Notes: generated by a model from the sequence alone, not told the origin. 45,137 nucleotides of DNA from Acidobacteriota bacterium (GCA_046733615.1 JBKPPP010000004.1:1-45137), one strand, 5' to 3'. Counted from the first letter of the stretch, positions 10,977 to 32,501 are shown. Made by a program: numbers and translations.

Positions 10977-11005
10977 CTGTGGGAGGTCAGGTTCGCACAC
11001 TGGAT

Positions 11006-12436: not shown

Positions 12437-12454
12437 CCCGCTTTCGAAACGCGC

Positions 12455-14386: not shown

Positions 14387-14391
14387 CCGCC

Positions 14392-14429
14392 CTGCGGGAA
14401 ATTCCTACCAGGCTGCGAAATACCTCGCA
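14392..14429. promoter_or_regulatory. Candidate enhancer (UAS): CTGCGGGAAATTCC plus inverted repeat TGCGA-N6-TCGCA
   Basis: GGAA-A-TTCC palindrome at 14392-14405 and a perfect TGCGA/TCGCA inverted repeat at 14414-14429. Both lie about 55-90 bp upstream of the -24 element at 14481. A related arrangement occurs at 28437-28475. Confidence 0.35.
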
Positions 14430-14480
14430 ATCGCGGCGGTTCACCCCCGAAAAATTCCCGTAACCAGCAGATACAGAAGG

Positions 14481-14496
14481 TGGTACGGCTCGTGCA
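14481..14496 (+). promoter_or_regulatory. Candidate sigma54 (-24/-12) promoter
   Basis: TGGTACGGCTCGTGCA versus consensus TGGCACG-N4-TTGCW. The GG and GC dinucleotides have correct spacing. Lies 62 nt upstream of ATG 14558 and directly downstream of the EBP/kinase pair. Confidence 0.55.
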
Positions 14497-14557
14497 CTCG
14501 CGCTGGCAGTTGCGAAGACGTGTGAAGGGCAACGTCGAAGGCGAAGGAACGATAAGA

Positions 14558-15709: not shown

Positions 15710-16659
15710 TGACTATCAAACGCATTGTTTGTCCCACTGACTTGTCCGCATACTCAGTCGGCGCGGTGCGTTACGCGCTGGCGCTGTCGCGCGTCCACGA
15801 TGCCGAGTTGATCCTTTTGCACTGCGAACCGCCTTCGGATCGTCTCGACAACGACGAAGAGCTCGGCATTCTGGAGTCGTCGGCGTTGGCTGAGATCAAC
15901 CCGCAGGAGCTCGTTGGCGCGCGCTGGCGGGCGATTGTCGCGACCGCGGAGGACGTGGGCGAGGAGATCATGAACCAGGCACAGTCGCAACACGCCGACT
16001 TGATCGTGATGAGATCGCGACGCCGGCCGCATCGCGCGGCCCTGCTCGGCTCGACGGCCGAAGCGGTGTGTCGCCGCGCGCCGTGCCCGGTGCTGGTGAT
16101 GCACGGCGACGAGCGCGAGTGGGTTGACGACGAGCTCCGCATCGATCTGCGCCGCGTGCTGGTTGCTTACGACTTCTCTGATTACTCCGAGCTGGCGCTC
16201 AACTACGCACTGTCAGTCGCGCAGGAGCATCAGGCAGAGCTCCATCTGCTGCACGTGTTGCCGCCGCGTTCGATAAACGATCCGGAGATTGCGTGGTATC
16301 CGAGCAAAGGCGAGTCGGCTTATCACACGGCTGCGCGCCGTTTGCAGCGAGCCGTGCCGGCTGAGGTCCATCTCTGGTGCACCGTCAAAACGGCCGTCAG
16401 CGAAGGACATCCTTATCGCGAGATTCTCAACTACGCCGAGAAGAACGACATCGACTTGATCAGCGTTGGCGCGCACGGCGCGGGGTTCGGCATGCGGGCT
16501 TTGTTTGGCTCGAACGTCGATCGCGTGTTGCGGCAGTCGCCTTGTCCGGTGCTGGTGGCACGCCCGTTGAAACCGGGAGTGATGCGGGCCAGAGAGGAAG
16601 CAAGCGTTTCGCTCACTTACGAAGGCGAGGGCGAGCGTGAGTTCGAACTGAGCTACTAA
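15706..16659 (+). CDS. Tandem universal stress protein (two UspA domains)
   Basis: ATG 15706 overlaps the upstream stop (ATGA). Two repeats each have ...LLHC/LLHV... and GS(T/N)...V(C/L)R...CPVLV motifs (GSTAEAVCRRAPCPVLVM; GSNVDRVLRQSPCPVLVA). Confidence 0.85.
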   Translation: MMTIKRIVCPTDLSAYSVGAVRYALALSRVHDAELILLHCEPPSDRLDNDEELGILESSALAEINPQELVGARWRAIVATAEDVGEEIMNQAQSQHADLIVMRSRRRPHRAALLGSTAEAVCRRAPCPVLVMHGDEREWVDDELRIDLRRVLVAYDFSDYSELALNYALSVAQEHQAELHLLHVLPPRSINDPEIAWYPSKGESAYHTAARRLQRAVPAEVHLWCTVKTAVSEGHPYREILNYAEKNDIDLISVGAHGAGFGMRALFGSNVDRVLRQSPCPVLVARPLKPGVMRAREEASVSLTYEGEGEREFELSY

Positions 16660-16677
16660 TCTCGCCCGGGAGTCGAT

Positions 16678-18621
16678 ATGGGAGAGCACAACGTCGAACA
16701 AGACTTTCAAGAGACGGACGCGCGGATCTTTATGAAGGCGCTGCTGGAAGATCTGCGGGCGCTGTCGTTCATGCTCGAAAACGGACGCGTTGAGAGCGGC
16801 ATCCGGCGCATCGGAGCGGAGCAGGAGATGTTTCTGATCGACAGCTACCTGCGACCCGCTCCGGTGTCGTTGGAAGTGCTGAGCCAGATTGACGACCCGC
16901 GGCTCACGACTGAGATCGCGCGTTTCAATCTGGAAGCGAACCTCACGCCGCTGCGTTTGACCGGCGCCTGTTTCAGCGAGATGCAGCAGGAGCTCGAGAA
17001 ACTGATCGCGCTGGCGCGGCGCAGTGCGGTCAGCCAGGGCGCAGACATCCTCCTCTCAGGCATTCTGCCGACGCTGCAAAAGTCAGACTTGACGCTCGAT
17101 AACCTCACGCCGGTCGCACGCTATCACGAGTTGAATCGCGGTGTTATTCGTCTGCGCGGCGGCCCGCTTTCGATTCACATCAAAGGGCTCGACGAGCTGC
17201 AGGCCACCCACGACAACATCATGATGGAGTCGTGCAACACCAGCTTCCAGGTCCACTTTCAAAGCACTGCCGGCGAGTTTGTGAATCACTACAACGTGGC
17301 GCAGGCGATCACGGCGCCGGTGCTCGCAGTCGCGGTTAACTCGCCGTTGCTGTTCGGCCGGCGCTTGTGGCAGGAGACGCGCGTCGCGCTGTTCCAGCAT
17401 TCGACTGATGAGCGTTCGTCGTCACAGCTCGCGCGCAGCCAGCCGACACGCGTGAGTTTTGGCGACGAGTGGTTGCGCAACTCGATCGTGGAGCTTTACC
17501 ACGAGCAGATTCTGCGTTTTCGTCCGATCATGATCAGCCGGGCGGACGAGAATCCTTTTGCCGTGCTCGCCCGCGGCGAGACGCCTTCGCTCTCGGCGCT
17601 GCGAATGCACAACGGAACCGTTTGGCGCTGGAATCGCGCCTGCTACGGCGTGACTGACGGCGTGCCGCACCTGCGCATCGAGAACCGCGCGTTGCCGTCC
17701 GGCCCAACGATTACAGACGAGATAGCTAACGCAGCTTTCTTCAGCGGCCTGATGCTGGCGCTCCCTGAAGAGTACGGCGAGATCGCGACGCAGATGGAGT
17801 TTGAAGAGGCGAAGTTGAACTTCTTCCGCGCGGCGCGACACGGCCTCGACGCTCAGTTCCGCTGGATAGGTGGGCAGAGTCTCAGCGCGTCGAAGCTGAT
17901 TTTGAACCACCTCCTGCCGCTCGCGAAACAGGGATTGAGCAGTGCGGAAGTGGCGAGTGAAGACATCGATCGTTACCTCGGCATTATCGAGGAGCGCGCG
18001 CGTTGCGGGCAGACAGGCGCGCGCTGGATCACGAAGTCCTGGGCGGCGATGGGAAACTCGACGTCGAGAGAAACGCGCCGCATGGCACTGACGTCCGCGA
18101 TGTTGAGCAATCAGAAGCAGAATCAACCGGGACACTGTTGGCCCGTGGTTGAAGTCGCCGAGACTGAGCAATGGGAACAGCACTACCAGGTCGTCAGCCA
18201 GTTTATGTCGACCGACTTGTTTACGGTCCATCCGGGCGACTTGATCGATCTCGCGGCAAGCGCGATGAATTGGCGGCACATCCGGCATGTGCCGGTGGAG
18301 GATGAGGATGGACGGCTGGTAGGTTTAGTGACTCATCGCGGTCTGTTGCGAATGATGAGTGGTGGAAGGAGCGAAGCGCTCACCGTGCGGGAGATCATGA
18401 TCGAGAATCCGGTCACCGTTTCGCCGTCGACGACGTCGTTGGAGGCGATGGATCTCATGCGCGGCAATCGCATCGGCTGTTTGCCGGTGGTGGAAGACAA
18501 TCGCCTCGTCGGGATCGTCACGTCGTACGACTTTCTCGAAGCGACGGCAGCACTTTTCAGGCAGCATCTTTCAGCGAAGACGGAAGCGCCCAAGTTTCTG
18601 GCGCAGGCAAACAATGGGTGA
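16678..18621 (+). CDS. Glutamate-cysteine ligase family 2 (carboxylate-amine ligase)-like domain fused to a C-terminal CBS pair
   Basis: N-terminal [12 protein letters not shown] and later GCS2-like blocks. The last ~130 aa form two CBS motifs ([16 protein letters not shown]...[16 protein letters not shown]; [16 protein letters not shown]...[20 protein letters not shown]). Confidence 0.65.
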
Positions 18622-18809
18622 GCGGTACATGTGGAAAATATCCCAAGCAGCGCGGTTTTCTTTGCGACAATATCTCAGTAGTGGGTCATGGCATGAGTAA
18701 AACGCCAGCAAATTTACTAGTTGATTCCTTTGTGCTCTTTGGTACACTCATTGCCAATGACCCTCTGGAGGGCGAGCCAGGGCTCGGTACAGGCGCTCGC
18801 AGTAAGCAC

Positions 18810-19523
18810 ATGGTCGGCGCAAAGCGATGTGCAGTTACGGAGGAGCGGGATCCGCTTATCCCCGAAACGGTTTGTTGTAATTCGGCTTTAGGTGCGCTTC
18901 GCGGCCTGAACGCCGTCAAAACCAGCAGACACCATGCACGCGGTTCGGTGCTGTTTGTCGAAGGTCAAATGCCACGAGGAGTCTATATCCTGTGTGAAGG
19001 TCGTGCGAAAATCTCAATCGCGTCACCCGAAGGCAAGACACTCGTGCTTAGGATTGTTCAGCCTGGTGACGTTTTAGGATTGAATGCCGCACTCACCGGC
19101 TCAACACATACTGCGACGATGCAGGCGCTCGAGCCCTGCCGCGTCGACTTTATACCTCGGAAAGATCTGCTGCGGCTGCTCGATCGTGACAAGCGTGTCT
19201 ATGCCGATGTGGCGCAGGCGTTGAGCTACAAGCTCAATAGCGTGGTAGATCACACCCGGCTGCTGTTCCTGTCGCATTCAGTAACCGAAAGACTGGCGCG
19301 ACTGATGGTTCGGTGGTGTGATGAGGGTGGGAAACGAACCAGCCAGGGAATCAAGATCGTCACAGGTCTTACTCACGAAGAAATCGCCCAGATGATTTGC
19401 ACGTCGCGTGAGACCGTCACGCGACTACTAAGCAAGTTCAAGAAGCAGCATCTGGTCAGCCTTGTCGGCACGACGATTTTTATTCGCAATCGTAAAGCGC
19501 TCGAAGCTCTCGCGGGATTCTGA
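18810..19523 (+). CDS. Crp/Fnr-family transcriptional regulator
   Basis: cNMP-binding-like barrel (GSVLFVEGQMPRGVYILCEGRAKISIASPEGKTLVLRIVQPGDVLG) and C-terminal HTH (LTHEEIAQMICTSRETVTRLLSKFKK). The start was chosen at the internal ATG giving 237 aa; the ORF is open from 18618. Confidence 0.8.
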   Translation: MVGAKRCAVTEERDPLIPETVCCNSALGALRGLNAVKTSRHHARGSVLFVEGQMPRGVYILCEGRAKISIASPEGKTLVLRIVQPGDVLGLNAALTGSTHTATMQALEPCRVDFIPRKDLLRLLDRDKRVYADVAQALSYKLNSVVDHTRLLFLSHSVTERLARLMVRWCDEGGKRTSQGIKIVTGLTHEEIAQMICTSRETVTRLLSKFKKQHLVSLVGTTIFIRNRKALEALAGF

Positions 19524-19614: not shown

Positions 19615-20622
19615 ATGATTAAGTTTCTTATTATTCTCGCTCTGCTTGTAGCGGTGATGTGGCTCGCCACGGGAACCTATTCACAGTCTGCCCCGACAGG
19701 CCAGTCTCAAGCTAAGACTCAAACGCAATCACCCCACGCCAACAGCGGCGACTACGTGGGCAGCGAAGCGTGCAAGGATTGTCACGAGGATCAATTCAAA
19801 AACTTCTCTCATACGACGCACGCGCGTCTGACCATGCTCGCCAGTTGGAAAGATCGCGTGACAGGCTGTGAATCATGTCACGGACCCGGCAAGGCCCACA
19901 TCGAAGAAGGCGATCCCAAAAAGATCATGTCCTTCAAGAACAAGCCGCCCAAGGAGATCTCCGAGACCTGTTTGACTTGTCACTCCGGCAGGGAAGAGCA
20001 CAACAACTTCCGCCGCGGCGAGCACTGGCGTAATGATATCGGGTGCATCGATTGCCATGCGCCCCATTCACCGGCCACTGGCCGGCAACTTGCCGCTTCC
20101 AACGTCTTCGTTTCACCCGCAAACGCACAGAAGCCCGGTTTCTCCACGATTAAGCTGCTCAGAAATAGCGAGCCGCAATTGTGCCTGGGCTGTCATGGCG
20201 AAATGAAGCACCAGTTTAATTTGCCCTTCCATCACAAGGTGCTGGAAGGAGCAATGAAGTGCAGCGATTGCCACAATCCGCACGGCGGTTTCGAACTTAA
20301 ACAAACGCGATTGGCGACAGGCGCGGATGCGGCCTGTATCAAGTGTCACGCTGACAAACAAGGCCCATTCGTATACGAGCACGCGCCGGTCAAGACCGAA
20401 GGTTGCATCGCGTGTCATACACCTCACGGGTCGTCCAACCCACGGCTGTTGATTACGAGCAGGGTCGGACAGCTCTGTCTGACGTGTCACAGCTCGGCCC
20501 ACGGGGTTGGCGCCGACGAACCGGCAGGTCCGCAGCATAACCAAAATGCGCAATACGCTAATTGCACAAACTGTCACGTCAAGATTCACGGTTCACGTAC
20601 GAGTCCAGTCTTTTTCAGGTAA
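19615..20622 (+). CDS. Periplasmic decaheme c-type cytochrome, MtrA/DmsE/PioA/MtoA-like
   Basis: 335 aa with a signal peptide. Exactly ten CXXCH motifs (CKDCH, CESCH, CLTCH, CIDCH, CLGCH, CSDCH, CIKCH, CIACH, CLTCH, CTNCH). C-terminal CTNCHVKIHGS resembles the MtrA-family ending. GAGGTG RBS. Confidence 0.85.
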   Translation: MIKFLIILALLVAVMWLATGTYSQSAPTGQSQAKTQTQSPHANSGDYVGSEACKDCHEDQFKNFSHTTHARLTMLASWKDRVTGCESCHGPGKAHIEEGDPKKIMSFKNKPPKEISETCLTCHSGREEHNNFRRGEHWRNDIGCIDCHAPHSPATGRQLAASNVFVSPANAQKPGFSTIKLLRNSEPQLCLGCHGEMKHQFNLPFHHKVLEGAMKCSDCHNPHGGFELKQTRLATGADAACIKCHADKQGPFVYEHAPVKTEGCIACHTPHGSSNPRLLITSRVGQLCLTCHSSAHGVGADEPAGPQHNQNAQYANCTNCHVKIHGSRTSPVFFR

Positions 20623-20667
20623 CCGTATTGTGAATCGTGGCGGCGGGCTAAGTCGGGAGGATGTCCC

Positions 20668-22860
20668 ATGACAAGGAAACCAGAGCGAGCGTACTTGATA
20701 CTTTCGGGAATAGTATTGTTGCTGATGATAGTGTCGGCGCAAGCTCAGCAACCGTCGCCCACGCCAAAAACCGATAACAATCAACCTGGTGCGCCCGTCG
20801 AAGCAGGCGAGGACGCAGGTGACTACACGGTCATCTCGAGTTTGGAGTTCGGTTATCGGGGAATAAGACTCGACGGCGACGAGAACAAGTACAAGAGCGA
20901 TCTCAATTACAAGGCTGGCCCACGCCTGTTCGACAGTAGTTTCCTAATGAGATCGCAGGACGGCAAATCGAATTTTTTCAATACCCTGCTCGTGACTTCG
21001 ACTGGTTGGGGAGCTGACCCGCAGGGCAATTTCAGAATAAGCGTCGAGAATCCAAAGTGGTATCGCTTTGACGGCACTTACCGCCGTTTCAAATACTTTC
21101 GTTTTCTGAATACCTTTGCCAATCCAAACTGGGTATTTAGTCCGCCGCAGTTTAGTGTGCCGCCGAAGCCCGGGACCGGTGAGCACGGCTTCAACACGAA
21201 AACCACGATGGGAGATTTTGATCTCACCATCCTGCCGAAGAACGAACGAATCAGATTCAACGTCGGATACTCGCCGGAACGTTACAATGGCCCTGCGTTC
21301 ACGAACTACCACTCCGGCGGAAACGAATTCAATCTCCTGTCGAATCTCAGATCCCGAGCGAACGACTTCCGCGTGGGAGCGGACGGGCGGATTGGCGGGG
21401 TCAATTTCTCGTTCCTCCAGGGTTTTCGCCGTTTTCGTGACGACAGCTCTATCGATTCCGGCGTGAATCCGGGCATCAACGTGAACCCGACCGCCGCGAA
21501 TCTCACCACTTTCCACCGCAACGAGCCCGCGCGCGGCAGCGTTAATTACACGCGCTTCAGCTTGCAGACGCTGATTGCCGGAAAACTCGATATCACAGGC
21601 CGCATCATCTACAGCAAGGCGAAGCAGACCTACGATTTTGCTGAGAACTTCACCGGCCGCAACTGGAACCCGCGAATCACGGGATTCCCGCCCAGCCCGC
21701 CGGCCGCAACGCCGAATATTCTCAACCTGGGCCAGTACGTTCTGAATGGTGAATCCGAACGGCCCAATACGCTCGGAGACATCGGATTGACGTACCGCTT
21801 CAACGAGCATTTCCGGCTTTCAAACACGTTTCGCGTAGAAGATTTCAAGATCGACGGCTTCGCCCTGTTCAGTGATTTCTTCTCGCTCACGCGCGGAACG
21901 AGGACCGATACGATCGGATTCAGTAACAACAACGTAAACACGTTGACCAAGTACCGGAAATACCAGAACCTGGTCGAAGGCGACTACCAGTTCAATAATC
22001 GCTACTCGGTCCACCTTGGATATCGTTACGCGAGGCGCCGGATCGAGGAAGAGCTGAGCGGTTTTAACCTCGGCTCGAATTCGCCCACGCCGCTAACTCC
22101 GGAGAGTTTTGAGGAACACAACAACACCAACGTAGTGATTGGCGGTTTCAAAGCGCGGCCGCTCACTGACTGGACGATCTACTTCGACGCCGAACACGGC
22201 ACGGCCGACAACGTCTTCACTCGAATCGGAAACTACAACTTCACCAATGTTCGAGCTAAGAGCCGGTACAAACCGAGTCGAAATGTGGCGTTCAATGTGT
22301 CGTACATTACGAAAAACAATTCCAACCCTTCGGAGATCGCCGGTGTTTCGCTCGAAGACTTTGGCGTAAGCGTGAAATCGCGTCTCTTCTCCACGACTCT
22401 TGATTGGACTCCTGATTCAAGAGCGTCGTTCAGCACCGGATACAACTACCACTGGATCACCAGCAATTCCGCTATTGAATACTTCTTCAATAGTGTACAG
22501 CACCCGTTTGGTCACAGTGTCTATTACAGCCGGAACAACTTCTTCTTTATCGATGCGGTGCTCCAGCCGGCTCGCCGCGTGACACTATTCACGTCGTACC
22601 GGATCAATAAAGATAACGGTCAGGGCAATCGAGTTGCCGACCCGACCGGTAATCCCGGATTGCTGATCGCTTCTTATCCGATGAGTTTCCAGTCACCCGA
22701 AGCGCGGCTGGCGATCAAGTTACATCATCGACTTGATTGGAACATTGGCTACCAGTATTACAACTACGACGAAAGCGCGATTGTCGGTCCAAGACCGCAG
22801 AACTATCACGTACACCTCCCATACACGTCGTTGCGAATTTACATCGGTCGAAGAGAATAG
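20668..22860 (+). CDS. Large outer-membrane beta-barrel protein, MtrB/PioB-like porin partner of the decaheme
   Basis: 730 aa, signal peptide ...LLLMIVSAQAQQ, no Cys. Alternating aromatic/polar beta-strand pattern throughout (many Y/F/W-x-G/N/D turns). GGGAGG RBS. Position immediately 3' of an MtrA-like gene and a size like MtrB (about 700 aa). Family assignment is inferred, not searched. Confidence 0.6.
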   Translation: MTRKPERAYLILSGIVLLLMIVSAQAQQPSPTPKTDNNQPGAPVEAGEDAGDYTVISSLEFGYRGIRLDGDENKYKSDLNYKAGPRLFDSSFLMRSQDGKSNFFNTLLVTSTGWGADPQGNFRISVENPKWYRFDGTYRRFKYFRFLNTFANPNWVFSPPQFSVPPKPGTGEHGFNTKTTMGDFDLTILPKNERIRFNVGYSPERYNGPAFTNYHSGGNEFNLLSNLRSRANDFRVGADGRIGGVNFSFLQGFRRFRDDSSIDSGVNPGINVNPTAANLTTFHRNEPARGSVNYTRFSLQTLIAGKLDITGRIIYSKAKQTYDFAENFTGRNWNPRITGFPPSPPAATPNILNLGQYVLNGESERPNTLGDIGLTYRFNEHFRLSNTFRVEDFKIDGFALFSDFFSLTRGTRTDTIGFSNNNVNTLTKYRKYQNLVEGDYQFNNRYSVHLGYRYARRRIEEELSGFNLGSNSPTPLTPESFEEHNNTNVVIGGFKARPLTDWTIYFDAEHGTADNVFTRIGNYNFTNVRAKSRYKPSRNVAFNVSYITKNNSNPSEIAGVSLEDFGVSVKSRLFSTTLDWTPDSRASFSTGYNYHWITSNSAIEYFFNSVQHPFGHSVYYSRNNFFFIDAVLQPARRVTLFTSYRINKDNGQGNRVADPTGNPGLLIASYPMSFQSPEARLAIKLHHRLDWNIGYQYYNYDESAIVGPRPQNYHVHLPYTSLRIYIGRRE

Positions 22861-22920
22861 AGTTAGAAACGAAGGCCACGGTAAGTTGCAGTTTCAGTTC
22901 TGATAACTCCGGAGGACTGA

Positions 22921-23403
22921 GTGGGCGACATTATTGCCGATAAGACAACTGGCCCAGGCCGCGATCCTGCATTACAAACAACGTCCCGTCGCAAGTTCCT
23001 CGATTACTTGCTCGGAACCAGTGCAGTCGCGACCCTGGGTGCGATCTTGTATCCGATCATCCGGTTCATGGTGCCGCCGCACATCGTGGAGGCACTGCAA
23101 AACTCCGTGGTGGCCGCCAAGGTGACTGAGCTCCCGCCAAACTCGGCGAAGATCTTCAAATTCGGCAGCAAACCCGGGATTGTTATCCGCACGGCGTCCG
23201 GAGAATTGAAGGCCTTCTCAGCCGTGTGCACCCACCTCGACTGCATCGTGCAGTATCGTCAGGATACGAAACAGATCTGGTGCGCCTGCCATAACGGTCA
23301 ATACAACCTCAACGGAGAAAACATCGGCGGTCCCCCGCCGCGGCCCCTGGAAGAATATGTAGTGAACAAACGAGGCGACGACATTGTAGTAAACAGATCC
23401 TGA
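22921..23403 (+). CDS. Rieske [2Fe-2S] subunit of a cytochrome bc/b6f-type complex, Tat-exported
   Basis: GTG start after GGAGGA. Twin-arginine motif [11 protein letters not shown] plus TM helix. Rieske boxes CTHLDC and CACHNG. Confidence 0.88.
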
Positions 23404-23408
23404 AGCCG

Positions 23409-24473
23409 ATGAAAGTCGACACAGTGAAAAGCTGGCTTGATGAGCGTCTCTACATAAGCGCGCTCACCCAGGCGGCGCAGAAGAAAGAAGTTCCGCTTCA
23501 CCGTCAGTCAATCTGGTACTACTTCGGTGGTATGACGCTGTTTCTTTTCGTGGTCCAGGTGGTCACGGGAATCCTGTTATTGCTCTACTACCGGCCGAGC
23601 GCTGAAAACGCGTTTGAGAGCGTTCAGTTCATCATGACTGAGGTGAAGTTTGGCTGGCTGATCCGTTCAATTCATAGTTGGTCGGCGAACCTGATGATTC
23701 TGACGCTGTTCATCCACCTGTTCAGCGTCTATTTCATGCGCGCTTACAACCGGCCTCGCGAGATCACGTGGGTCAGCGGCGTGGTGCTGCTGTTCATTTC
23801 CATCTGTTTTGGGTTCAGCGGGTATTTACTGCCGTGGAACGAGGTCTCGTTCTTTGCTACGAAGGTGGGCACTGAGATTGCCGGCGTCATTCCAGTCGTC
23901 GGCAAGACAATGTTGCGCTTCCTGCGCGGCGGTGACGAAGTGACCGGCGCCACGTTGACGCGCTTTTTCGGATTTCACGTCGCAGTGCTACCGGCAATGG
24001 CGACGGTATTTGTATTTGTGCACGTCCTGCTGGTCCAGGTGCACGGCATGCATGTTCCGGCTCGTTATGAACAGAATAGCCGGCGCATAAAATTCTTTCC
24101 AAACTTCATAATGCGCGACGCGATCGGGTGGTTATTCGCAATTGGCGCGTTGGCTGCACTCGCCGCCATTTTCCCTTGGGAGCTCGGCGTCAAAGCGGAT
24201 CCGTTTGCGCCGGCCCCGGCCGGAATAAAACCGGAATGGTATTTCCTGTTCATGTTTCAAACACTGAAATACATTCCAGCGAAGATTCTCAGTATTGATG
24301 GCGAAGTTCTCGGCATTCTTTTTTTCATGTTGGCAGGCGGCGCCCTGTTTCTGGTGCCGTTCATTAATCGCTCTGCGGAGCAGCATCCGCGCCGCAGGCT
24401 GGTGTTCAATCTACTCGGAATTATCGCGATCTTGTTCATGGCAGTTATGACGGTGATCGGGTATTTAGCGTGA
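23409..24473 (+). CDS. Cytochrome b (fused b6 + subunit IV type)
   Basis: [30 protein letters not shown]. Helix B has H-x13-H ([15 protein letters not shown]) and helix D has H-x14-H ([16 protein letters not shown]), which is b6-like spacing. Qo-site PEWY motif ([15 protein letters not shown]). Confidence 0.9.
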
Positions 24474-25756
24474 TAACGAGAATCCGATTACTTTTGCTGT
24501 TTGCGGCCGGCGTGTTGTTGATTACTGCCTGCCCGGCCGCTGCTCAGCAGAAAAACTCGTGTCTCGAGTGTCACAGCAAACTGGAAGGAGAATTCGGCGC
24601 GCCCGCGCGTTCGATTAAAGACGACATTCATCTTTCCAGAGGTCTCTCCTGCAACGATTGCCACGGCGGCGATCCGACCAAGGACGACAAGGACGCCGCG
24701 AAAGACAGATCGAAAGGTTATTTGGGGCGGCCTCGAACGGTAGATATTCCCGCCTTCTGCGGCAAGTGTCACAACGATGCGAGCTTTATGAAGAAGTTTA
24801 ATCCGGCTTTGCGAGTGGACCAGGAGAAGGAGTACTCGACCAGCGTTCACGGACAACTGCTAAAAAAGGGAAACGAGAAGGTCGCCACCTGTATCAGTTG
24901 TCATGGCGTGCACGGAATTCGCGCCGTGAGCGACGCTCTTTCTTCAGTGTACCCGTCGAACGTTGCGGAGACCTGTTCCAAGTGCCACAGCGAAGCGGGC
25001 CGGATGGCCGAATTCAAAATTCCGACAGATCAATACTCGAGGTACAAGAAGAGTGTTCATGCGAAGGCGTTGTATGAGAAGCAGGATCTCAGTGCTCCGA
25101 CATGCAACGACTGTCATGGTAATCATGGCGCGGCTCCTCCGGGCATCGCGTCGGTGGCAAATGTTTGCGGGCAGTGTCACGCACGGCAGGCGGAGCTGTT
25201 TCAAGCCAGCCCACACAAAGTCGCGTTCGATAACGCGGGATTTGGCGAGTGCATCAAGTGTCATAACAACCACGACATCTACCCGCCCACCGATGCTCTG
25301 ATAGGCACAGGCGAAAACTCTATTTGTATATCGTGTCATAAACCGGGCGACAAAGGATTCATCGCTGCCGGCCAAATGCGCGGCGCGATCGACGACCTGT
25401 TGGCTCGTATCAAGCGCTCGGAGGAGATACTGGGTCGGGCGGAACGCGCAGGCATGGAAGTAAGTAAGCCCAAGTTTGATTTGCGTGAGGCAATTGACGG
25501 CGTTACTCATGCACGCGTGCTGATCCACACCTCATCTCCCGCGGAAGTCGACAAGCTGGTTGTGCCGGCGGTCGGGGTTGCGACAAAGGCGTACGAGTCT
25601 GGACAGGGCGCGCTTGCGGAGTTGAATGTTAGACGCAAAGGTCTGGTGGTCTCACTATTTTTTATCCTGTTCCTGGCGTTTCTGGTGTATTTAAAGCTGA
25701 GAGAAATTGAGAGACGGCGGCCAGCCGAGGGATTTTCAAAGAGTGGCGGCACCTAA
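24470..25756 (+). CDS. Membrane-anchored nonaheme c-type cytochrome (occupies the cytochrome c1/f position of the Rieske/cyt b operon)
   Basis: GTG start overlaps the cyt b stop (GTGA). Nine CXXCH motifs. N-terminal signal with possible lipobox LITAC. Helical region and C-terminal TM helix [18 protein letters not shown]. Three motifs are of the CxxCHxxHxI type. Confidence 0.8.
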
Positions 25757-25765
25757 AAAGGACAA

Positions 25766-26968
25766 ATGCGCATACCGGTACAAGGGACAATCTCCTTCTT
25801 AGCGTGTCTCGTTTTCTTGCTCTGCTTCGGCGGTTTCATCGACGCGCACGATTCGTCGGTAGTCGCTCAGACGCGTCGTCGTGCGCGGCCACGACAGAGT
25901 CAACCACAGAAGCCGCGCATCGACTACTCGAGATTTTCGCACCACACTCACGTCCAGACGCAAAAGCTTGCCTGTGATTCGTGCCATAAGTTTCCCTCGA
26001 AAAACTGGAAAGAAGTTCGTAAGGGCGACGATGCGTTCGCCGACGTGACTGACTTTCCCGAACACCAGGCCTGTCTCAACTGTCATCGCACACAGTTCTT
26101 CGCGCGTGAACGGCCGGCGCCGGTCATCTGTTCGAACTGTCACGTTGCGGTTACTCCAAAAAACACCGCGCGGCATCCATTTCCAAGTCTGGGCGCACCA
26201 TTCCTGAGCACGCGTCCGGATTTCGTTTCGGAGTTCAAGGTTGCGTTTCCACATGAGAAACACGTGGACGTGGTGGGTAGCCTGCGTTTCAGACTTCGCG
26301 ATGATCGGACATTCGCTTTTGCTCATGCATCGTACACGCGGGATGATGCGCAGTCTAAGAGTTGCGTCGTATGCCATCACACCTACCAGCCCCAGGGAAA
26401 GTCGAGTGACGAGTTTGTTACCCCGCCGCCGAAGAACCTGCCCGAAGACGCGTTCTGGTTGAAGAAGGGCGCCTTCAAAACAACACCGACTACCCACAGC
26501 GATTGTTCCACTTGTCACAACGAAGAGGCGGGGATCGCTCCTTCGCCAAAGGACTGTGCTGCCTGTCATAAGTTTTCGCCTGCGGTTACTGAGCCGCTGC
26601 GCGACTTCGATCCAAAACTCGCCGCGACGATGCGCGTAACTGATTGGGTGATGCTGCGAAAGTGGTCACGACGCAGCGCCGGACGTTATCGACACGAGTT
26701 CGATGTTCATAATGAGATGGGTTGTACGTCCTGCCATAACCCGGCCGTGATGAACACGCTCGACGAGAGAACGTTTGTTTCGGTGAAGTCGTGCGGCGGG
26801 AGCGGTGGCTGTCACATTGAAACAAATACGGAAGGCATTCTGAACTACGAGATCGAACAGAAGAAAAAGAATCCGGCGTTCCATTGTGTCAAGTGCCACA
26901 TCATAATAGGCAAGAACCCCGTTCCGCAGGATCACCTGGACGCGATCCCGAAAGCGCCAACGAAATAA
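25766..26968 (+). CDS. Multiheme c-type cytochrome, c7/c3-like repeats (8 CXXCH + 1 CX5CH)
   Basis: 400 aa with a hydrophobic N-terminus. Eight CXXCH motifs plus CGGSGGCH. Repeated F-x-H-x-x-H strings (FSHHTH, FPHEKH) are typical of c7/c3 domains. Confidence 0.8.
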   Translation: MRIPVQGTISFLACLVFLLCFGGFIDAHDSSVVAQTRRRARPRQSQPQKPRIDYSRFSHHTHVQTQKLACDSCHKFPSKNWKEVRKGDDAFADVTDFPEHQACLNCHRTQFFARERPAPVICSNCHVAVTPKNTARHPFPSLGAPFLSTRPDFVSEFKVAFPHEKHVDVVGSLRFRLRDDRTFAFAHASYTRDDAQSKSCVVCHHTYQPQGKSSDEFVTPPPKNLPEDAFWLKKGAFKTTPTTHSDCSTCHNEEAGIAPSPKDCAACHKFSPAVTEPLRDFDPKLAATMRVTDWVMLRKWSRRSAGRYRHEFDVHNEMGCTSCHNPAVMNTLDERTFVSVKSCGGSGGCHIETNTEGILNYEIEQKKKNPAFHCVKCHIIIGKNPVPQDHLDAIPKAPTK

Positions 26969-27792
26969 TGCTGGAAGAGACTACAGGCAAACCGCGCGTA
27001 TCGTTATTGCTTTGCGCCTTCATGGGCGTCGTCGTCTTTTGTATGGCCCAACCGAGCGCCGCGGCGCAGGAGCCGAGTCTTGATTACTCGAAGTTTCTTC
27101 ACACGACGCAGAACCATGCGCGCATGCCTTGTTTGTTATGTCACAGGCGAGAGAGCAATTCGCCCCGGCCTGCTCTGCCGGGTGCGGCGCAGCACGCCCC
27201 TTGCGCGGGATGCCATGCGCAGCAGTTTGCGAATAAAGAGAGTCCCATCTGCACGATTTGTCATACCGACGTCAATTCCGGCGCGACGAAGCCTTTCCCG
27301 CCGCTGAAGAGTTTCCGCGTCAACTTCGATCACGGAAAACACTTGAGTATGGGTGGCGTGAGTTGTGCTACCTGTCATCGGCCCGCAAGAGGCGGTGTCG
27401 CGCTCTCGATTCCGGCCGGCTTCAATGCCCATTCGACCTGCTTTACCTGTCACACGCCTCGTGCAAAATCCGGCGATCGAGACATTTCTTCCTGCGGAAC
27501 GTGCCATAAAGTCGGCGGTTACTCCAGAACGCCTCAGTGGACCGCGGCTTTTCGCATGAGTTTCAGTCACGCTAAACATGGCTCGGGGCAGAAGCTGAGT
27601 TGTGACGACTGTCATCAGGTGAGAACCGGCTTGCCGCAGAGCCGACAAGTGACTGCTCCGGAGCCTGCTAATCATCACGCGAGCGGGCGAACCCAGAGTT
27701 GCATGACTTGTCATGATGGCAAGCGGGCGTTTGGCGGTGATGATTTCTCTGTTTGCAAGCGATGTCACACAGGAGTGCGGTGGCAGTTTTGA
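26968..27792 (+). CDS. Nonaheme c-type cytochrome built of c7-type triheme modules
   Basis: ATG 26968 overlaps the preceding TAA (TAATG). Signal peptide ...VVFCMAQPSAAAQ. Nine CXXCH in about 250 mature residues, with FDHGKH and FSHAKH strings. Confidence 0.8.
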   Translation: MLEETTGKPRVSLLLCAFMGVVVFCMAQPSAAAQEPSLDYSKFLHTTQNHARMPCLLCHRRESNSPRPALPGAAQHAPCAGCHAQQFANKESPICTICHTDVNSGATKPFPPLKSFRVNFDHGKHLSMGGVSCATCHRPARGGVALSIPAGFNAHSTCFTCHTPRAKSGDRDISSCGTCHKVGGYSRTPQWTAAFRMSFSHAKHGSGQKLSCDDCHQVRTGLPQSRQVTAPEPANHHASGRTQSCMTCHDGKRAFGGDDFSVCKRCHTGVRWQF

Positions 27793-27845
27793 TGTGAAGC
27801 CCCCAACGTTGAATTCGTTTTGAGAAGTTTCCAGGAGGTGTGAAC

Positions 27846-28421
27846 ATGAAGCGCTTCATCGCTGTCGTTATCGTTTTCGGCGCGCTTGTCCTTTACTTCA
27901 ACTTGGCGGGGCCACTCCGCGATGCAGCAGCACAGGATGCTAAGAAGCCGCAGGATACTTATGTGCTCGCTCAGGAGGCGAAACTGGGTACGGTTACCTT
28001 CAGTCATCTCAATCACACGACAAAGAATCGCAATTCCGAAGGCACCGGCCCGAGTGCGTGTATTGAGTGTCACCATACAGCACAGCCTGCTGCTGAGGCA
28101 GCCAAGCATCCGCCACTCAAGACGGTCTGGCCTGCGGATCGAACCACGACGCTGACTGCTGAAACGTTGGCGAAGGATCCAAACGCCGTCGGCGCAGTCT
28201 GCCGCGACTGTCACGCGCGCGCCGATACCAAGCCGAAATTGCTGCCGGAGATTCCGCAGATAAAACTTGAAGTTGGCACCGAGCTGGTGACGCTGACAAA
28301 CCAGCAGGCATTCCATCGCAACTGTGCCGGGTGTCATGACCAGGTCGCCAAGGCGAGGACTGACGTGAATCCTCCCACTTCGAAGAAGTGCACGGCTTGT
28401 CACAAGAAAACAGCCGCCTGA
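27846..28421 (+). CDS. Tetraheme cytochrome c3-family protein
   Basis: MKRFIAVVIVFGALVLYFNLA signal/anchor. Four CXXCH (CIECH, CRDCH, CAGCH, CTACH). VTFSHLNH string. GGAGGTG RBS. Confidence 0.8.
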   Translation: MKRFIAVVIVFGALVLYFNLAGPLRDAAAQDAKKPQDTYVLAQEAKLGTVTFSHLNHTTKNRNSEGTGPSACIECHHTAQPAAEAAKHPPLKTVWPADRTTTLTAETLAKDPNAVGAVCRDCHARADTKPKLLPEIPQIKLEVGTELVTLTNQQAFHRNCAGCHDQVAKARTDVNPPTSKKCTACHKKTAA

Positions 28422-28436
28422 TGCGGGTGAGAGTGA

Positions 28437-28475
28437 CTGCGGAAAGTTTCCCAGTTCTGCGCCAACAACCGCAGA
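28437..28475. promoter_or_regulatory. Candidate enhancer (UAS): CTGCGGAAAGTTTCC plus inverted repeat TCTGCG-N8-CGCAGA
   Basis: GGAAA-G-TTTCC palindrome preceded by CTGCG (28437-28452), and an inverted repeat at 28456-28475. Both lie about 40-78 bp upstream of the -24 element at 28514. Same architecture as 14392-14429. Confidence 0.35.
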
Positions 28476-28513
28476 TTTGCCGGATTTTCAGGCGTTTTGC
28501 TGTGTATAAGAAG

Positions 28514-28529
28514 CGGCACGCTCATTGCT
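28514..28529 (+). promoter_or_regulatory. Candidate sigma54 (-24/-12) promoter
   Basis: CGGCACGCTCATTGCT matches TGGCACG-N4-TTGCW at all conserved positions except the first T. Lies 63 nt upstream of ATG 28592 in a 170-nt gap. Confidence 0.6.
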
Positions 28530-28591
28530 CCTCGAACGGCGCGGGAGGCTAACCCCGGCTCGTAAAGTTGCTACATGAGAGGGCTGAAGCG

Positions 28592-28921
28592 ATGAAAAAC
28601 TTGATTGGTTGGACCAGACTAACGCTCATGCTGGGCGGTATCATATCTGTGGCGGCATTATTCATGGTGACGGCGGCGCCTGCGCGCACGAGTAATGATG
28701 ACGACGCGGCCGCAATGTTTAAATCAAAATGTGTCGCGTGCCACGGAGCAACGGCCGAGAAGAAGTTCGACGCGACCAAAGCTGACGATGTGCTTGTCCA
28801 GACTGTCTTGAAAGGCAGAAAGCTGGAGAAGCCACCGAACATGCCGGCCTACGAAGAGAAGGGCATTACAGAAGACCAGGCCAAGGCACTGGTCGCCTTT
28901 ATGAAATCGTTGAAGAAGTAG
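28592..28921 (+). CDS. Monoheme class I cytochrome c
   Basis: ATG after GAGGG. Signal/anchor helix. Single CVACHG with distal Met candidate in PPNMPAY. 109 aa. Confidence 0.8.
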   Translation: MKNLIGWTRLTLMLGGIISVAALFMVTAAPARTSNDDDAAAMFKSKCVACHGATAEKKFDATKADDVLVQTVLKGRKLEKPPNMPAYEEKGITEDQAKALVAFMKSLKK

Positions 28922-29034
28922 CTGCCGATTTAGAAAAACTGAACGGGCCATAAACAGACACAGAGCACAAGCAGAGTGAATTTTACTTCGCTTGTGCGCT
29001 TGTGTTTGTTATGGCTCTTTACTGCATCCGCTTA

Positions 29035-30930
29035 ATGAAACGTTGGGCAACATTTCTGGTAGTGTTGTTCGCCTTGTCTTTCGTGTGCGTTGGTTTGCAA
29101 ACGCAGTTGAGTCATGCGCAGCGTTCGGCAGCCACACCAACGCCATCGCCCAGTCCGTCCCCCGCTCAAACGAGCGCACCGAATCTGCAATGTCAGGGTT
29201 GTCACGCGCCCGGTAAGACTCTGCCGTATCTCGGCGGCGCCAAGTTCCACACGGACGTGCACACCGCCTACGACCACGGCTTTCACGCTCAGGCAATTCA
29301 GGGTGGACGCAAAGCCGCGACTTGCATCGATTGCCATACTCGAAACGGAGACATGACGACGATCCTGCCCGGTGCGGATCCAAATTCGACTATTCATCGC
29401 AGAAACATCGCCGACACTTGCGGCCGCTGTCATGGCGACAAGTCGGTCATGCAAGGCAGCGGGATTAGCGATCGGCCGTTTCTTTCCTATCGCGAGAGCG
29501 TGCATGCGAAGGCGATCGCGCAGGGTAATATCAACGCGGCCGTTTGCACTGACTGTCACAACAGTCACGACATTCTTCCCGCTTCCAATCCCCAGTCGCC
29601 GATCACAAAGGTGAACATACCCGCGACGTGTAGCAAGTGTCACAAGGCTGAAACCGCGGAGTTCATGCAGAGTATTCACGGCCAAGCGGTGACGCGCGGT
29701 GTGTCGCGCTCTCCGGTGTGCACGGACTGTCACGGAATTCACAACATCGTCGCGCCGGTTGAGCGAGCCACCGCGACAGTCTCGAGCGCTGTCGCCACTG
29801 AAACCTGTGCTCGTTGTCATGAAGGCGTTACGCTGACCAAGGAATTCGGCGTCGCCGGCGAGCGCGTCAGCAGCTACAAGGATAGTTACCACGGGCTGGC
29901 GTCACGGATGGGTTCGCGCGTGGTGGCAAACTGTGCGAGCTGTCACGGTGTACACAACATCCTCCCCTCATCGGATCCGAGCTCGATGATCAATATAAGC
30001 AACCTGCCTCACACCTGCGGACAGTGTCACGTTGGCGCGGGTGCTAAATTCGCCACCGGCAGGATTCATCTGACTTCAGAGTTGATCGCTGCAAATGGCG
30101 CACGCGATCTGGGTGCAATCGGGACGCGTATTGTTCGCTGGATTTACATTCCGCTGATCGTGCTGGTGATTGGAGGGATGGTGGTTCACAACGCGCTCGT
30201 TTGGGGGCGCAAGGTCGTAGCGCGCAAGCACGAGAAACGCGAGATTGTTCGTCTGACTCGCAATCAGCGAGTGCAGCACTGGCTATTGCTGACCAGCTTT
30301 ATCGTCCTCGTGCTGAGTGGCTTCGCGCTTCAATATCCTGACTCCTGGCTCGCAGCGATGTTAGGTGGTAACGAGTATCTGCGACGAATAATTCATCGCG
30401 TCGCCGCCGTAGTGATGCTGGTTGTCGGCGCGTATCATCTCGTCTACCTGGCCAAAGCAAAAGAAGGCCGCCTGTGGGTGAAAGACATGCTTGTCAGGGG
30501 CAAAGACTTCAGAGATTTGCTCGGCAACTTCGGCTATTATCTCGGCATGTCGAAAGCCAGGCCGAAGTTTGCTCGGTTCGGCTATGCTGAGAAGGCTGAG
30601 TATTGGGCCGTGTTGTGGGGAACGCTCGTCATGGGCCTCACCGGTCTGATGATCTGGTTCAAGCTGGGCATTTTTGCATTTCTGCCGCGATGGGCCATCG
30701 ACGTCGCGCTCTCGATTCACTTTTACGAAGCGGTGCTGGCGACGCTCGCGATTGTGGTTTGGCACTTCTATCACGTAATTTTTGACCCCGACGTCTATCC
30801 CGTCAACTTCGCCTTTCTGGATGGCCGTGTCTCCACCGAGCATTACCGAGAAGAGCACGGACTAGCCTACGAACAACAACAGCAAGAACAAACTGAAGAA
30901 CAAGCTGGAGAACAAACAGGTACGCCATGA
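29035..30930 (+). CDS. Fusion of a periplasmic nonaheme c-type cytochrome domain with a C-terminal membrane b-type cytochrome domain (HydC/FdnI-like); CbcL-like
   Basis: Signal peptide MKRWATFLVVLFALSFVCVGLQ. Nine CXXCH. Then at least four hydrophobic segments with conserved His (VQHWLLL, IHRVAAVVMLVVGAYHLVY, HFYEAVLATLAIVVWHFYH). GTG 29002 or ATG 29011 are alternative starts. Confidence 0.8.
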   Translation: MKRWATFLVVLFALSFVCVGLQTQLSHAQRSAATPTPSPSPSPAQTSAPNLQCQGCHAPGKTLPYLGGAKFHTDVHTAYDHGFHAQAIQGGRKAATCIDCHTRNGDMTTILPGADPNSTIHRRNIADTCGRCHGDKSVMQGSGISDRPFLSYRESVHAKAIAQGNINAAVCTDCHNSHDILPASNPQSPITKVNIPATCSKCHKAETAEFMQSIHGQAVTRGVSRSPVCTDCHGIHNIVAPVERATATVSSAVATETCARCHEGVTLTKEFGVAGERVSSYKDSYHGLASRMGSRVVANCASCHGVHNILPSSDPSSMINISNLPHTCGQCHVGAGAKFATGRIHLTSELIAANGARDLGAIGTRIVRWIYIPLIVLVIGGMVVHNALVWGRKVVARKHEKREIVRLTRNQRVQHWLLLTSFIVLVLSGFALQYPDSWLAAMLGGNEYLRRIIHRVAAVVMLVVGAYHLVYLAKAKEGRLWVKDMLVRGKDFRDLLGNFGYYLGMSKARPKFARFGYAEKAEYWAVLWGTLVMGLTGLMIWFKLGIFAFLPRWAIDVALSIHFYEAVLATLAIVVWHFYHVIFDPDVYPVNFAFLDGRVSTEHYREEHGLAYEQQQQEQTEEQAGEQTGTP

Positions 30931-32501
30931 GCGAAACTAAAAAGCCGAGCACGAGACTAACCAGTCTTTTCCGCAACTACATCAGTTTCGTCGGTGCAGC
31001 GATCGCCACTGCGGCTCTCGTAAGCACTGTGCTGTTGTTTTTGGTTGAGATTAGTTCGCACCTGGAAAATCCTTATCTTGGCATTCTGACTTACATAATC
31101 TTTCCGTCGATTCTCTTGCTGGGTTTGATAATCGTGGTCATCGGGATGATGGTCGAGAGACGCCGGCGGCATCGCGGATCGCCCGAACAGATCGCAGCTT
31201 ACCCGAAACTGGATCTGAACGACCCACGCGCACGTAAGGCATTCTTCGTCTTTCTCGTGGCCACGTTTCTTTTCATCTGTGCGAGCGCCTTCGGCAGTTA
31301 CAAAGCTTACGAATACACGGAGTCGGTCGAGTTTTGTGGTGCGACCTGTCACAAGCCGATGAAACCCGAGTACACGGCTTACAGGGCCGGAGCCCACGCG
31401 CGCGTCGGCTGTGTTGGCTGTCACGTCGGACCAGGGGCCGGTTGGTACGTCCGTTCGAAACTCTCCGGCGCGTATCAGCTCTATTCCGTGTCTTTCAATA
31501 AGTATCCTAGGCCGATCACAACGCCCGTTCATAATCTTCGGCCGGCGCCTGAGACATGCGAGCAGTGTCACTGGCCCGAGAAGTTCTTTGGCGCTCAACT
31601 GAAAGTCTTTAATCATTACGCGTACGACGAGAAAAACACGTTACGGCAAATGCGCCTGCTGATTAACGTCGGCGGCGGCAGCCCAACCACCGGTGCGGTC
31701 GCGGGAATTCATTGGCACATGAACATCTCCAATACCATCGACTACATCTCGACCGACGATCATCGCCAGGTGATACCGTGGATACGCATCAAGGATCGCC
31801 AGGGAAACGTGACCGAGTACTACGATCGTTCGCGGCCACTGACGCAGCAACAGATCGCCGGCTCTGAAAAGCGGCGCATGGACTGCGTCGACTGTCATAA
31901 TCGTCCGGCGCATTCATACCTTCCGCCGGACGTCGCGGTGGACCATTCCCTCGCCGCGGGTAGACTCGATCCATCCTTACCCTATCTCAAGCGACAGGCA
32001 GTCGGAGCGCTGAACAAGGAATACAGTACCGAGGATGAAGCGGTGAAGACGATCGCGCAGAGTCTCGACGGCTTTTACCGGACAAACTACAGCGATCTGT
32101 ATGCGCAGAAACCCGATGTCATCAAAGGCGCGATCGACGAGACACAGCGAATCTACAAGACCTATTTCTTTCCGGAGATGAAGACCAATTGGGAGACTCA
32201 TCCCAACAACATCGGCCATCTCTATTCATCGGGTTGTTTTCGCTGTCATGACGGTGAGCACGTCAGTAACACGGGGAAGGTGATTCGTAACGACTGCACT
32301 ATTTGTCACACTATGCTGTCCGACTCCGCGCGCCCCGCGGCAGCCAATCAAACACCCACACCTCAGCATCCGGTTGATCTGGGTGGACTGGCCGATCGCA
32401 AGTGCGAAACGTGTCACAAAGCGAATGAGCCGTTTCGCCATCCGGTTAATCTGGGAGACATTTCGATGTTTCAGTGCGTGGAGTGTCACCCGAAGAAGTG
32501 A
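30927..32501 (+). CDS. Inner-membrane multiheme cytochrome with three N-terminal TM helices and a NapC/NirT-like region (7 CXXCH + 1 CX3CH); ImcH-like
   Basis: ATG overlaps the upstream stop (ATGA). Three hydrophobic helices in the first 125 aa. NapC/NirT-like string SVEFCGATCHKPMKPEYTAYRAGAHARVGCVGCH. Seven canonical CXXCH. Confidence 0.75.
   Translation: MSETKKPSTRLTSLFRNYISFVGAAIATAALVSTVLLFLVEISSHLENPYLGILTYIIFPSILLLGLIIVVIGMMVERRRRHRGSPEQIAAYPKLDLNDPRARKAFFVFLVATFLFICASAFGSYKAYEYTESVEFCGATCHKPMKPEYTAYRAGAHARVGCVGCHVGPGAGWYVRSKLSGAYQLYSVSFNKYPRPITTPVHNLRPAPETCEQCHWPEKFFGAQLKVFNHYAYDEKNTLRQMRLLINVGGGSPTTGAVAGIHWHMNISNTIDYISTDDHRQVIPWIRIKDRQGNVTEYYDRSRPLTQQQIAGSEKRRMDCVDCHNRPAHSYLPPDVAVDHSLAAGRLDPSLPYLKRQAVGALNKEYSTEDEAVKTIAQSLDGFYRTNYSDLYAQKPDVIKGAIDETQRIYKTYFFPEMKTNWETHPNNIGHLYSSGCFRCHDGEHVSNTGKVIRNDCTICHTMLSDSARPAAANQTPTPQHPVDLGGLADRKCETCHKANEPFRHPVNLGDISMFQCVECHPKK

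Follow-up and report, generated by a model that had tools for sequence, protein, structure and literature searches.

A conserved gene pair encoding CbcL-like and ImcH-like inner-membrane cytochromes in an acidobacterial cytochrome cluster

Do CbcL-like and ImcH-like cytochromes act together when a genome encodes them side by side? The question is raised by a 45,137-nucleotide (nt) stretch of DNA from an Acidobacteriota bacterium (GCA_046733615.1, JBKPPP010000004.1:1-45137; hereafter the window), in which a monohaem cytochrome c gene, a CbcL-like gene and an ImcH-like gene, which we call genes D, E and F, follow one another on the + strand. ImcH is required for acceptors above about -0.1 V, whereas CbcL is required below about -0.1 V and is inactivated at high potential (residues V205 and F525). 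Both serve as metagenome marker genes for extracellular electron transfer, and they underlie the idea that a respiratory route is picked by mineral redox potential. As the first-pass annotation of the window had stated, Geobacter sulfurreducens encodes them at separate loci (cbcL, GSU0274; imcH, GSU3259), and its imcH is monocistronic (PMC4251993; PMC6295460 supplements). We find that the order CbcL-like gene, then ImcH-like gene is what soil Acidobacteria and several other phyla usually show, not a peculiarity of this genome, and that the pair is a widespread conserved unit that has apparently gone undescribed. The novelty is modest: a conserved pair, found in this case within an Mtr-like cluster, in a lineage regarded as aerobic.

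Gene D (28592..28921) encodes a monohaem class I cytochrome c of 109 amino acids (aa) from the ATG at 28592, with one CXXCH and a match to Cytochrome_CBB3 (PF13442, E 4.5e-10). Gene E (about 29035..30930), the CbcL-family bc-type cytochrome, has three possible starts: the GTG at 29002 that opens the reading frame (642 aa), the ATG at 29011 chosen by the public gene call (639 aa) and the ATG at 29035 (631 aa). A product of about 631 aa is most likely, because the consensus of its homologs begins at MKR, which is the ATG at 29035 and the point at which an alignment of 35 homologs opens. Gene F (30927..32501) encodes a predicted quinol dehydrogenase of the ImcH family, 524 aa long, and shares an ATGA at 30927..30930 with E, which ends ...CCA TGA where F opens ATG AGC. 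A monohaem c gene, then a fusion of nine haem motifs to cytochrome b, then a stop/start overlap is what the first-pass annotation had described here, and all three are confirmed. The closest homologs of E and F share up to 86% identity with them and stem from metagenomes, of soil among others, and the named ones are labelled Pyrinomonadaceae bacterium (Acidobacteriota, class Blastocatellia). A D-like match stands directly upstream of E or F in loci L001-L023, preceding either the pair or ImcH alone in these relatives.

The protein encoded by E runs from a periplasmic nonahaem domain through a first transmembrane (TM) helix and an FdnI/HydC-like four-helix dihaem b domain to an acidic cytoplasmic tail. 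Its nine CXXCH motifs lie within residues 64-339 (642-aa numbering), and all 117 close homologs also have nine. The b domain matches PF01292 (Ni_hydr_CYTB; residues 421-595, E 5.7e-14, 52.7 bits against a cut-off of 30.1) and TIGR01583 (formate dehydrogenase gamma subunit; E 2.4e-16), and the nearest solved relative is FdnI (PDB 1kqf chain C; E 2.6e-6, over E residues 413-634). Searches for an NCBIfam model or a PDB entry for CbcL or ImcH found neither. As a stand-in for GSU0274 we used a Desulfuromonas thiophila cbcL, a frameshift-split gene that we reached via fragments from the supplement of PMC9129911 and reconstructed; its haem positions (32/57/81/104/128/156/184/227/255) give the GSU0274 pattern. 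E aligns with this ortholog at 29% identity over 578 aa (E 2e-63), colinear across both domains, with eight CXXCH and four membrane histidines (H423, H462, H570 and H585) in register. In the reverse search, the D. thiophila protein retrieved E as its best match in the window at 203 bits, with the next match at 72 bits. The spacing of the last five haem motifs is 28/30/29/42/28 in E, 24/29/28/43/28 in CbcL and 31/31/25/30/28 in MtoC, so by motif spacing E follows CbcL, not MtoC.

Where E departs from its namesake is in the membrane. CbcL of G. sulfurreducens has six TM helices (PMC9129911), whereas E has five by hydropathy and also in a low-confidence AlphaFold2 (AF2) model (predicted local distance difference test, pLDDT, 46), of which the helix list alone was used. 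Absence of the sixth helix goes with an acidic cytoplasmic tail in every compared E-like protein that is encoded near an ImcH-like gene, with one frameshifted exception, and the compared five-helix proteins come from Acidobacteriota, Ignavibacteriota and other phyla. Because E is colinear with the CbcL ortholog yet has five TM helices and an acidic tail, we assign it to the CbcL family as a distinct subtype. The earlier CbcL-like assignment of E holds, on the colinear alignment, the nine CXXCH and the dihaem b domain, with one qualification: five predicted helices instead of six.

The published traits of ImcH are three TM helices, a NapC/NirT-like region, a first haem motif of the form CX3CH and six CXXCH (PMC4251993, PMC6295460). 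The hydropathy segments of F (18-46, 49-80 and 101-126) lie close to the tabulated TM helices of GSU3259 (13-35, 45-67 and 100-122); PF03264 (NapC/NirT) covers residues 102-193 (E 4.1e-8, 33.6 bits against a cut-off of 24.1), and F also matches TIGR03153 (NrfH; E 1.5e-13) and, weakly, NrfH itself over residues 121-226 (PDB 2j7a chain C; E 0.045), in keeping with an NrfH-like quinol site. The atypical CX3CH of haem 1, which marks ImcH homologs (motif described in PMC4251993 and PMC6295460), is present as C137-G-A-T-C-H142 at 31335..31352 on the + strand. Because this motif adds to seven CXXCH, F has eight haem motifs, not seven: the earlier description of a 524-aa protein with three TM helices, a NapC/NirT-like string and seven CXXCH was right in each part and had overlooked the CX3CH. 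Seven of these motifs, at 137/162/211/320/437/457/493, correspond to 132/156/205/311/428/448/486 in GSU3259, and F has a further CXXCH at residue 517, its eighth. All 118 close homologs of F carry one CX3CH and seven CXXCH, including the motif at C517, and because the counts are constant in all 118 close homologs of F and all 117 of E, they are not due to chance. By these alignments, the predicted C517 haem is a clade-specific addition. An acidobacterial ImcH homolog listed in Table S3 of PMC6295460, OLE50779.1, has its motifs at 137, 161, 210, 319, 436, 456, 493 and 517; because these eight positions agree with those of F, it belongs to the same subtype.

Agreement extends to the surroundings of haem 1, where ImcH conserves E127, K173, Q179 (the distal ligand) and Y188 (bioRxiv 10.1101/2023.05.03.539133). 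The F residues E132, K178, Q184 and Y193, together with H142, match these residues and H137 of GSU3259, all with an offset of +5. An alignment of 36 diverse members of the ImcH family shows no variation at C137, C141 or H142. K178 reaches at least 90% conservation, and E132 and Q184 are each the residue that most members carry. Of the six CXXCH typical of the family, five never vary and the remaining one (C493) is conserved in at least 90%. Among 1.8 billion representative proteins searched, 835 representatives, one per 50%-identity cluster, matched at E <1e-30. Homologs span residues 1-524 of F, and F shares 40% identity over 465 aa with an ImcH-like protein adjoining a Desulfuromonadia-type cbcL. 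The exact GSU3259 motif positions occur in 0 of 150 representative ImcH-like proteins. At the level of sequence, F has every published feature of ImcH, and the TM helices, NapC/NirT region, CX3CH, motif spacing and haem-1 residues bear out its earlier assignment as ImcH-like.

How common, then, is the pair? We ran the ImcH alignment against GTDB genomes, one for each species, took the best 80 of at least 600 matches, located CbcL-like genes by tblastn and assessed the 74 loci that had enough flank. A CbcL-like gene lies directly upstream of the ImcH-like gene on the same strand at 47 of the 74, elsewhere within 10 kb at 9 and nowhere within the flank at 18. Among the 47 adjacent pairs, 34 have a gap of 0-576 nt and 13 a predicted overlap of 4 or 11 nt, sizes that are approximate because the starts of F were set by rule. 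Adjacency is close to universal at Terriglobia-type loci (34/35) and recurs in Thermoanaerobaculia, Binatia, Bacteroidota and Ignavibacteriota. Across 44 pairs, the divergence of E and of F is correlated (b domain, r 0.95; c domain, r 0.88), which fits joint inheritance and is predicted by shared phylogeny too. At Pyrinomonadaceae-like loci the pair is adjacent in just 4 of 17, and elsewhere in this group it is D that stands immediately before the ImcH-like gene; this family has seen repeated gain or loss of the CbcL-like gene. The same cluster minus the CbcL-like gene, with the monohaem gene before imcH, was seen at L005, L009-L011, L014, L016, L018-L021 and L061.

Linkage also extends to genes of the Geobacter type. 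Among 21 assessable metagenome contigs of that clade, a Desulfuromonadia-type cbcL is linked to imcH in 15, lying within about 400-600 nt upstream in 8 and 2.4-7.7 kb upstream in 7; the other 6 have no such cbcL. On one contig, L085, a six-TM cbcL of the Geobacter type is followed by a gene for a small membrane protein and then, about 270 nt on, by an ImcH-like gene. A small membrane protein of 71-79 aa is conserved directly after the Desulfuromonadia-type cbcL (L084:6659-6898, L085:6590-6805), and on L085 it is this gene that sits between cbcL and imcH. Linkage is common, and the separate loci of G. sulfurreducens represent one of several variants. In the literature, we did not find adjacency of imcH and cbcL homologs stated, apart from a remark on Desulfuromonas soudanensis, whose homologs DSOUD_0207 and DSOUD_0214 are shown in one neighbourhood ('in the vicinity'; PMC4914508). 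For the four ImcH-bearing genomes that we looked up (three acidobacterial, one Ignavibacteria), the family survey in PMC6295460 gives no homolog of CbcL, and it leaves adjacency unmentioned. The first-pass annotation had allowed that the adjacency might prove both common and already documented; it is common (47/74), and its documentation is marginal (PMC4914508).

If the pair is a unit, does the codon overlap tell us how it is used? The ATGA does not recur as a conserved feature: the E-F junction measures -8, -4, +23, +45, +120 and +156 nt in the closest relatives and -11 to +576 nt overall. The overlap was also considered as a mark that singles out this junction, and that idea is ruled out by three other overlapping junctions in or near the cluster, of 4 nt at 18618-18621 and 24470-24473 and of 1 nt (TAATG) at 26968. 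It had further been proposed that translational coupling implies co-production instead of a choice made by potential, and hence a different division of labour. In G. sulfurreducens, however, imcH and cbcL are both constitutively expressed and the pathways switch within minutes, post-translationally (PMC5322298; bioRxiv 10.1101/2022.08.31.506072), and single residue changes in CbcL shift the range in which it works (bioRxiv 10.1101/2022.08.31.506072). Because Geobacter already co-produces both proteins and chooses between them at the protein level, co-production is silent on the division of labour. An operon with overlapping codons is no argument for an arrangement different from that of Geobacter, and the model of how ImcH and CbcL divide their labour is unchanged on present evidence.

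The spacer between D and E contains an RNA hairpin (28949..29013, + strand) whose 3' arm covers the ATG at 29011; the fold of 28922-29013 has a minimum free energy of -40.3 kcal/mol (z -7.1), with 0 of 200 shuffles equally stable. In six of six related D-E-F loci the matching spacer holds a hairpin that is just as strong, though unrelated in sequence. It is probably a conserved intra-operon attenuator or mRNA-stability element, which would set the ratio of soluble to membrane cytochromes. A search for FNR/CRP boxes gave 23 matches against 16 +/- 4 expected, none of them well placed, and was rejected; a promoter and terminator scan within the cluster gave nothing above chance.

E and F are the last two genes of a 12-gene cluster with short gaps, all on the + strand (19615-32501). 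A Crp/Fnr-family regulator (18618..19523, + strand) stands just upstream, as it does in L002 and L003. The first cluster gene encodes a periplasmic decahaem cytochrome of the DmsE/MtrA family (19615..20622) with ten CXXCH, which scores 236.5 bits with TIGR03508 against a curated cut-off of 192.2 and has as its best PDB match 6r2q chain A (E 1e-31), which we take to be MtrA of the Shewanella MtrCAB complex. It is followed by a gene for a 730-aa secreted protein (20668..22860), a putative outer-membrane beta-barrel partner of the decahaem. This protein has no match in Pfam or NCBIfam, gave a chance match alone in the PDB profile search and shows no similarity to MtrB/PioB detectable by family or PDB profiles. 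Its signal peptide is its sole hydrophobic stretch; it has no cysteine, is rich in N, G, S, T, F and Y, and contains 26 amphipathic beta windows against 10 +/- 6.7 in shuffles, and its Terriglobia homologs terminate in ...LRYAF or ...LKYEF. A single-sequence AF2 model reached pLDDT 28. Composition, signal peptide and the aromatic C-terminus of homologs point to a putative porin, which may represent an undescribed porin family. The decahaem and the 730-aa protein are encoded in the same cluster as imcH here and at about 20 other acidobacterial loci; in the 2018 family survey, no mtrAB adjoined imcH (PMC6295460).

Between this pair and gene D lie a Rieske protein (22921..23403), a cytochrome b of the b6/subunit IV type (23409..24473) and a membrane-anchored nonahaem cytochrome (24470..25756), the last with a nonahaem domain paralogous to the c domain of E. 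Together (22921-25756) they form a third predicted quinol-oxidising module in the cluster. The cytochrome b scores 212 bits with the Geobacter ExtP model, under the cut-off of 290. Three periplasmic cytochromes follow, with 8 haems (25766..26968), 9 haems (probable start 26968, to 27792, by the TAATG overlap) and 4 haems (27840..28421); the 9-haem gene is listed as a 302-aa open reading frame at 26884, and its start is most likely the ATG at 26968. Related contigs have the same cluster, with the Rieske block before or after the E-F pair. Further upstream, 10973-19523 encodes a sigma-54 response regulator, a PAS hybrid histidine kinase, an SQR-like (sulfide:quinone reductase-like) flavoprotein, a tandem universal stress protein (Usp), a GCS2-CBS protein and the Crp/Fnr regulator, and in L001 a GCS2-CBS protein, a sigma-54 activator, a PAS protein and a Usp protein flank the cluster on the opposite side. 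These regulator and stress genes suggest a shared low-oxygen or energy-stress regulon.

Two representative proteins have an FdnI/HydC-type cytochrome b domain joined to the N-terminus of an ImcH-like protein. At L086:1684-6465 (GCA_053998095.1, JBMXWU010000346.1), the fusion, b::ImcH, is 734 aa long and comes after a Rieske-like protein, a monohaem c and a 13-haem c, with a clean TAATG at the gene boundary before it; this locus is the D-E-F set of modules with the gene boundary moved. At L087:1-4297 (Logan SRR22507543 contig), the fusion is 771 aa long, joins a HydC-type b domain to an ImcH-like multihaem protein and lies after a [NiFe]-hydrogenase large subunit and before a HycI protease, and it would wire the membrane anchor of the hydrogenase straight to the ImcH module. 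Because both fusions are single-member clusters at 90% identity, they are suggestive only.

The reading that we favor, with a probability of roughly 60%, is that E and F are an old, widely inherited pair of menaquinol-oxidising inner-membrane cytochromes, here in a Pyrinomonadaceae-like acidobacterium, that would feed the cytochromes encoded upstream, toward extracellular acceptors. F would take electrons from quinol at an NrfH-type site that faces the periplasm (haem 1, with His/Gln ligation) and pass electrons along eight c haems, so that protons and electrons would both be released periplasmically, as proposed for ImcH. E would oxidise quinol at its FdnI-type dihaem b domain and, as has been proposed for CbcL, send the electrons through the membrane to nine c haems. 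Both proteins would reduce the pool of periplasmic cytochromes encoded just upstream, and from there electrons would reach extracellular acceptors through the MtrA-family decahaem and the putative porin. E and F would be made together, and their use would be set by the potential of the acceptor, through thermodynamics or protein-level gating as in Geobacter. Beyond the observed architectures, family relationships and conserved synteny, we infer quinol oxidation, the direction of electron flow, the extracellular acceptor and operon structure for the E-F cluster.

Several points weigh against this reading. Described Pyrinomonadaceae are known as aerobes, so a role in extracellular respiration can be no more than putative here. 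The roles of E and F in this organism are read from the genes, and the two proteins were set against GSU0274 and GSU3259 by way of published descriptions, tabulated motifs and a stand-in ortholog. E lacks the sixth TM helix of characterised CbcL, and the alignment with D. thiophila CbcL stops before that helix. In 13 of 17 Pyrinomonadaceae-like genomes ImcH has no adjacent CbcL-like gene, and E is therefore dispensable for F there. With the D-E hairpin in between, E and F may be uncoupled from the genes before them, and the 730-aa protein is a putative porin, by the features given above.

These points leave room for other readings. E and F could be subunits of one previously unrecognised quinol:cytochrome c oxidoreductase, possibly with D as a soluble partner, a single enzyme rather than two alternatives, with a b-haem quinol site toward the cytoplasm and an NrfH-type site toward the periplasm; such a complex would be shared by Acidobacteriota, Ignavibacteriota and Bacteroidota at the least, and the CbcL and ImcH of G. 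sulfurreducens, unlinked and acting independently, would be a derived split. We regard this as unlikely. The same order and strand and direct adjacency in 47 of 74 genomes of several phyla speak for it, and so does the shared form of the paired E-like proteins, which all come without the sixth TM helix that stand-alone Desulfuromonadia CbcL has and carry an acidic cytoplasmic tail. Topology would permit contact, as E is predicted to end and F to begin on the cytoplasmic side, and L086 has the same modules cut elsewhere (monohaem c, 13-haem c and b::ImcH, with its TAATG). Adjacency, however, is by itself no proof of contact; 18 of the 74 genomes have an ImcH-like gene with no CbcL-like gene within the flank; the L086 and L087 fusions are each single-member clusters, the latter in a [NiFe]-hydrogenase operon and not in a CbcL context; and by mutant phenotypes ImcH and CbcL of Geobacter act independently (PMC5322298).

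Electrons might also run the other way. With Fe(II), Mn(II) or reduced humics as donors, E would serve as an MtoC-like quinone reductase in an Mto-like system, and the Rieske/cytochrome b module would lead to oxygen; the host family is known as aerobic. The decahaem, putative porin, class I monohaem cytochrome and CbcL/MtrH/MtoC-family protein do resemble mtoA-mtoB-mtoD-mtoC (PMC6295460). We judge this inward flow improbable: the one role linked to ImcH homologs so far is quinol oxidation by Fe(III)-reducing organisms (PMC6295460), E spaces its last five haem motifs as CbcL does and not as MtoC does, gene D has no specific match to MtoD, and the Crp/Fnr regulator, universal stress proteins and PAS kinase nearby suggest a low-oxygen response. 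A purely periplasmic network that passes quinone-pool electrons to soluble acceptors or terminal oxidases, with another role for the decahaem and the 730-aa protein, seems to us very improbable. It would account for a 730-aa protein that matches no porin family, for a Rieske/cytochrome b module and a monohaem c that are ordinary respiratory parts and for the nitrite reductase genes nrfHA just downstream in L002. It fits less well with a decahaem that scores above the DmsE/MtrA cut-off and is always followed by the 730-aa gene, as mtrA is by mtrB, with the outer-membrane-type aromatic C-terminus of the 730-aa homologs, or with the specificity of ImcH and CbcL, to date, for extracellular acceptors in the one organism tested (PMC4251993, PMC5322298).

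On the favored reading of two alternative quinol oxidases, the possible range of 'two-gear' quinol oxidation widens to abundant soil Acidobacteria, including lineages regarded as aerobes. Outside Geobacter, the two genes are usually passed on as one pair, with a shortened CbcL-type partner that is unrecorded for the ImcH-bearing acidobacterial genomes in PMC6295460, and the pair yields a simple annotation rule.

Set beside known systems, E resembles CbcL (GSU0274) in its build, a periplasmic N-terminal part that bears nine CXXCH and is joined to a C-terminal dihaem cytochrome b of the FdnI/HydC type, and in the spacing of its last five haem motifs, and it differs in its low identity to the D. 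thiophila ortholog (just 29%), in the wider spacing of its first four haem motifs and in its five instead of six TM helices and acidic cytoplasmic tail. F resembles ImcH (GSU3259) in its three N-terminal TM helices, the NapC/NirT-like region after TM3 and a CX3CH followed by CXXCH motifs at near-identical spacing, but it is 524 rather than 507 aa long and carries an eighth, C-terminal haem motif (C517); imcH is monocistronic in Geobacter, whereas F overlaps a CbcL-like gene by 4 nt in a cluster with an MtrA-family decahaem. Residues 121-226 of F resemble the quinol-binding tetrahaem anchor NrfH (2j7a chain C), and residues 413-634 of E resemble, in a weak match, the cytochrome b556 subunit of formate dehydrogenase-N, FdnI (1kqf chain C); unlike NrfH and FdnI, F and E come without an attached catalytic subunit and each with a long multihaem extension. 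The cluster as a whole shares with Mtr and Mto clusters an MtrA/DmsE decahaem followed by a large secreted protein, a class I monohaem cytochrome and a CbcL/MtoC-family membrane cytochrome. It differs from them in that no MtrC-type outer cytochrome was seen in it and in what it adds: ImcH, a Rieske/cytochrome b complex and three more multihaem cytochromes.

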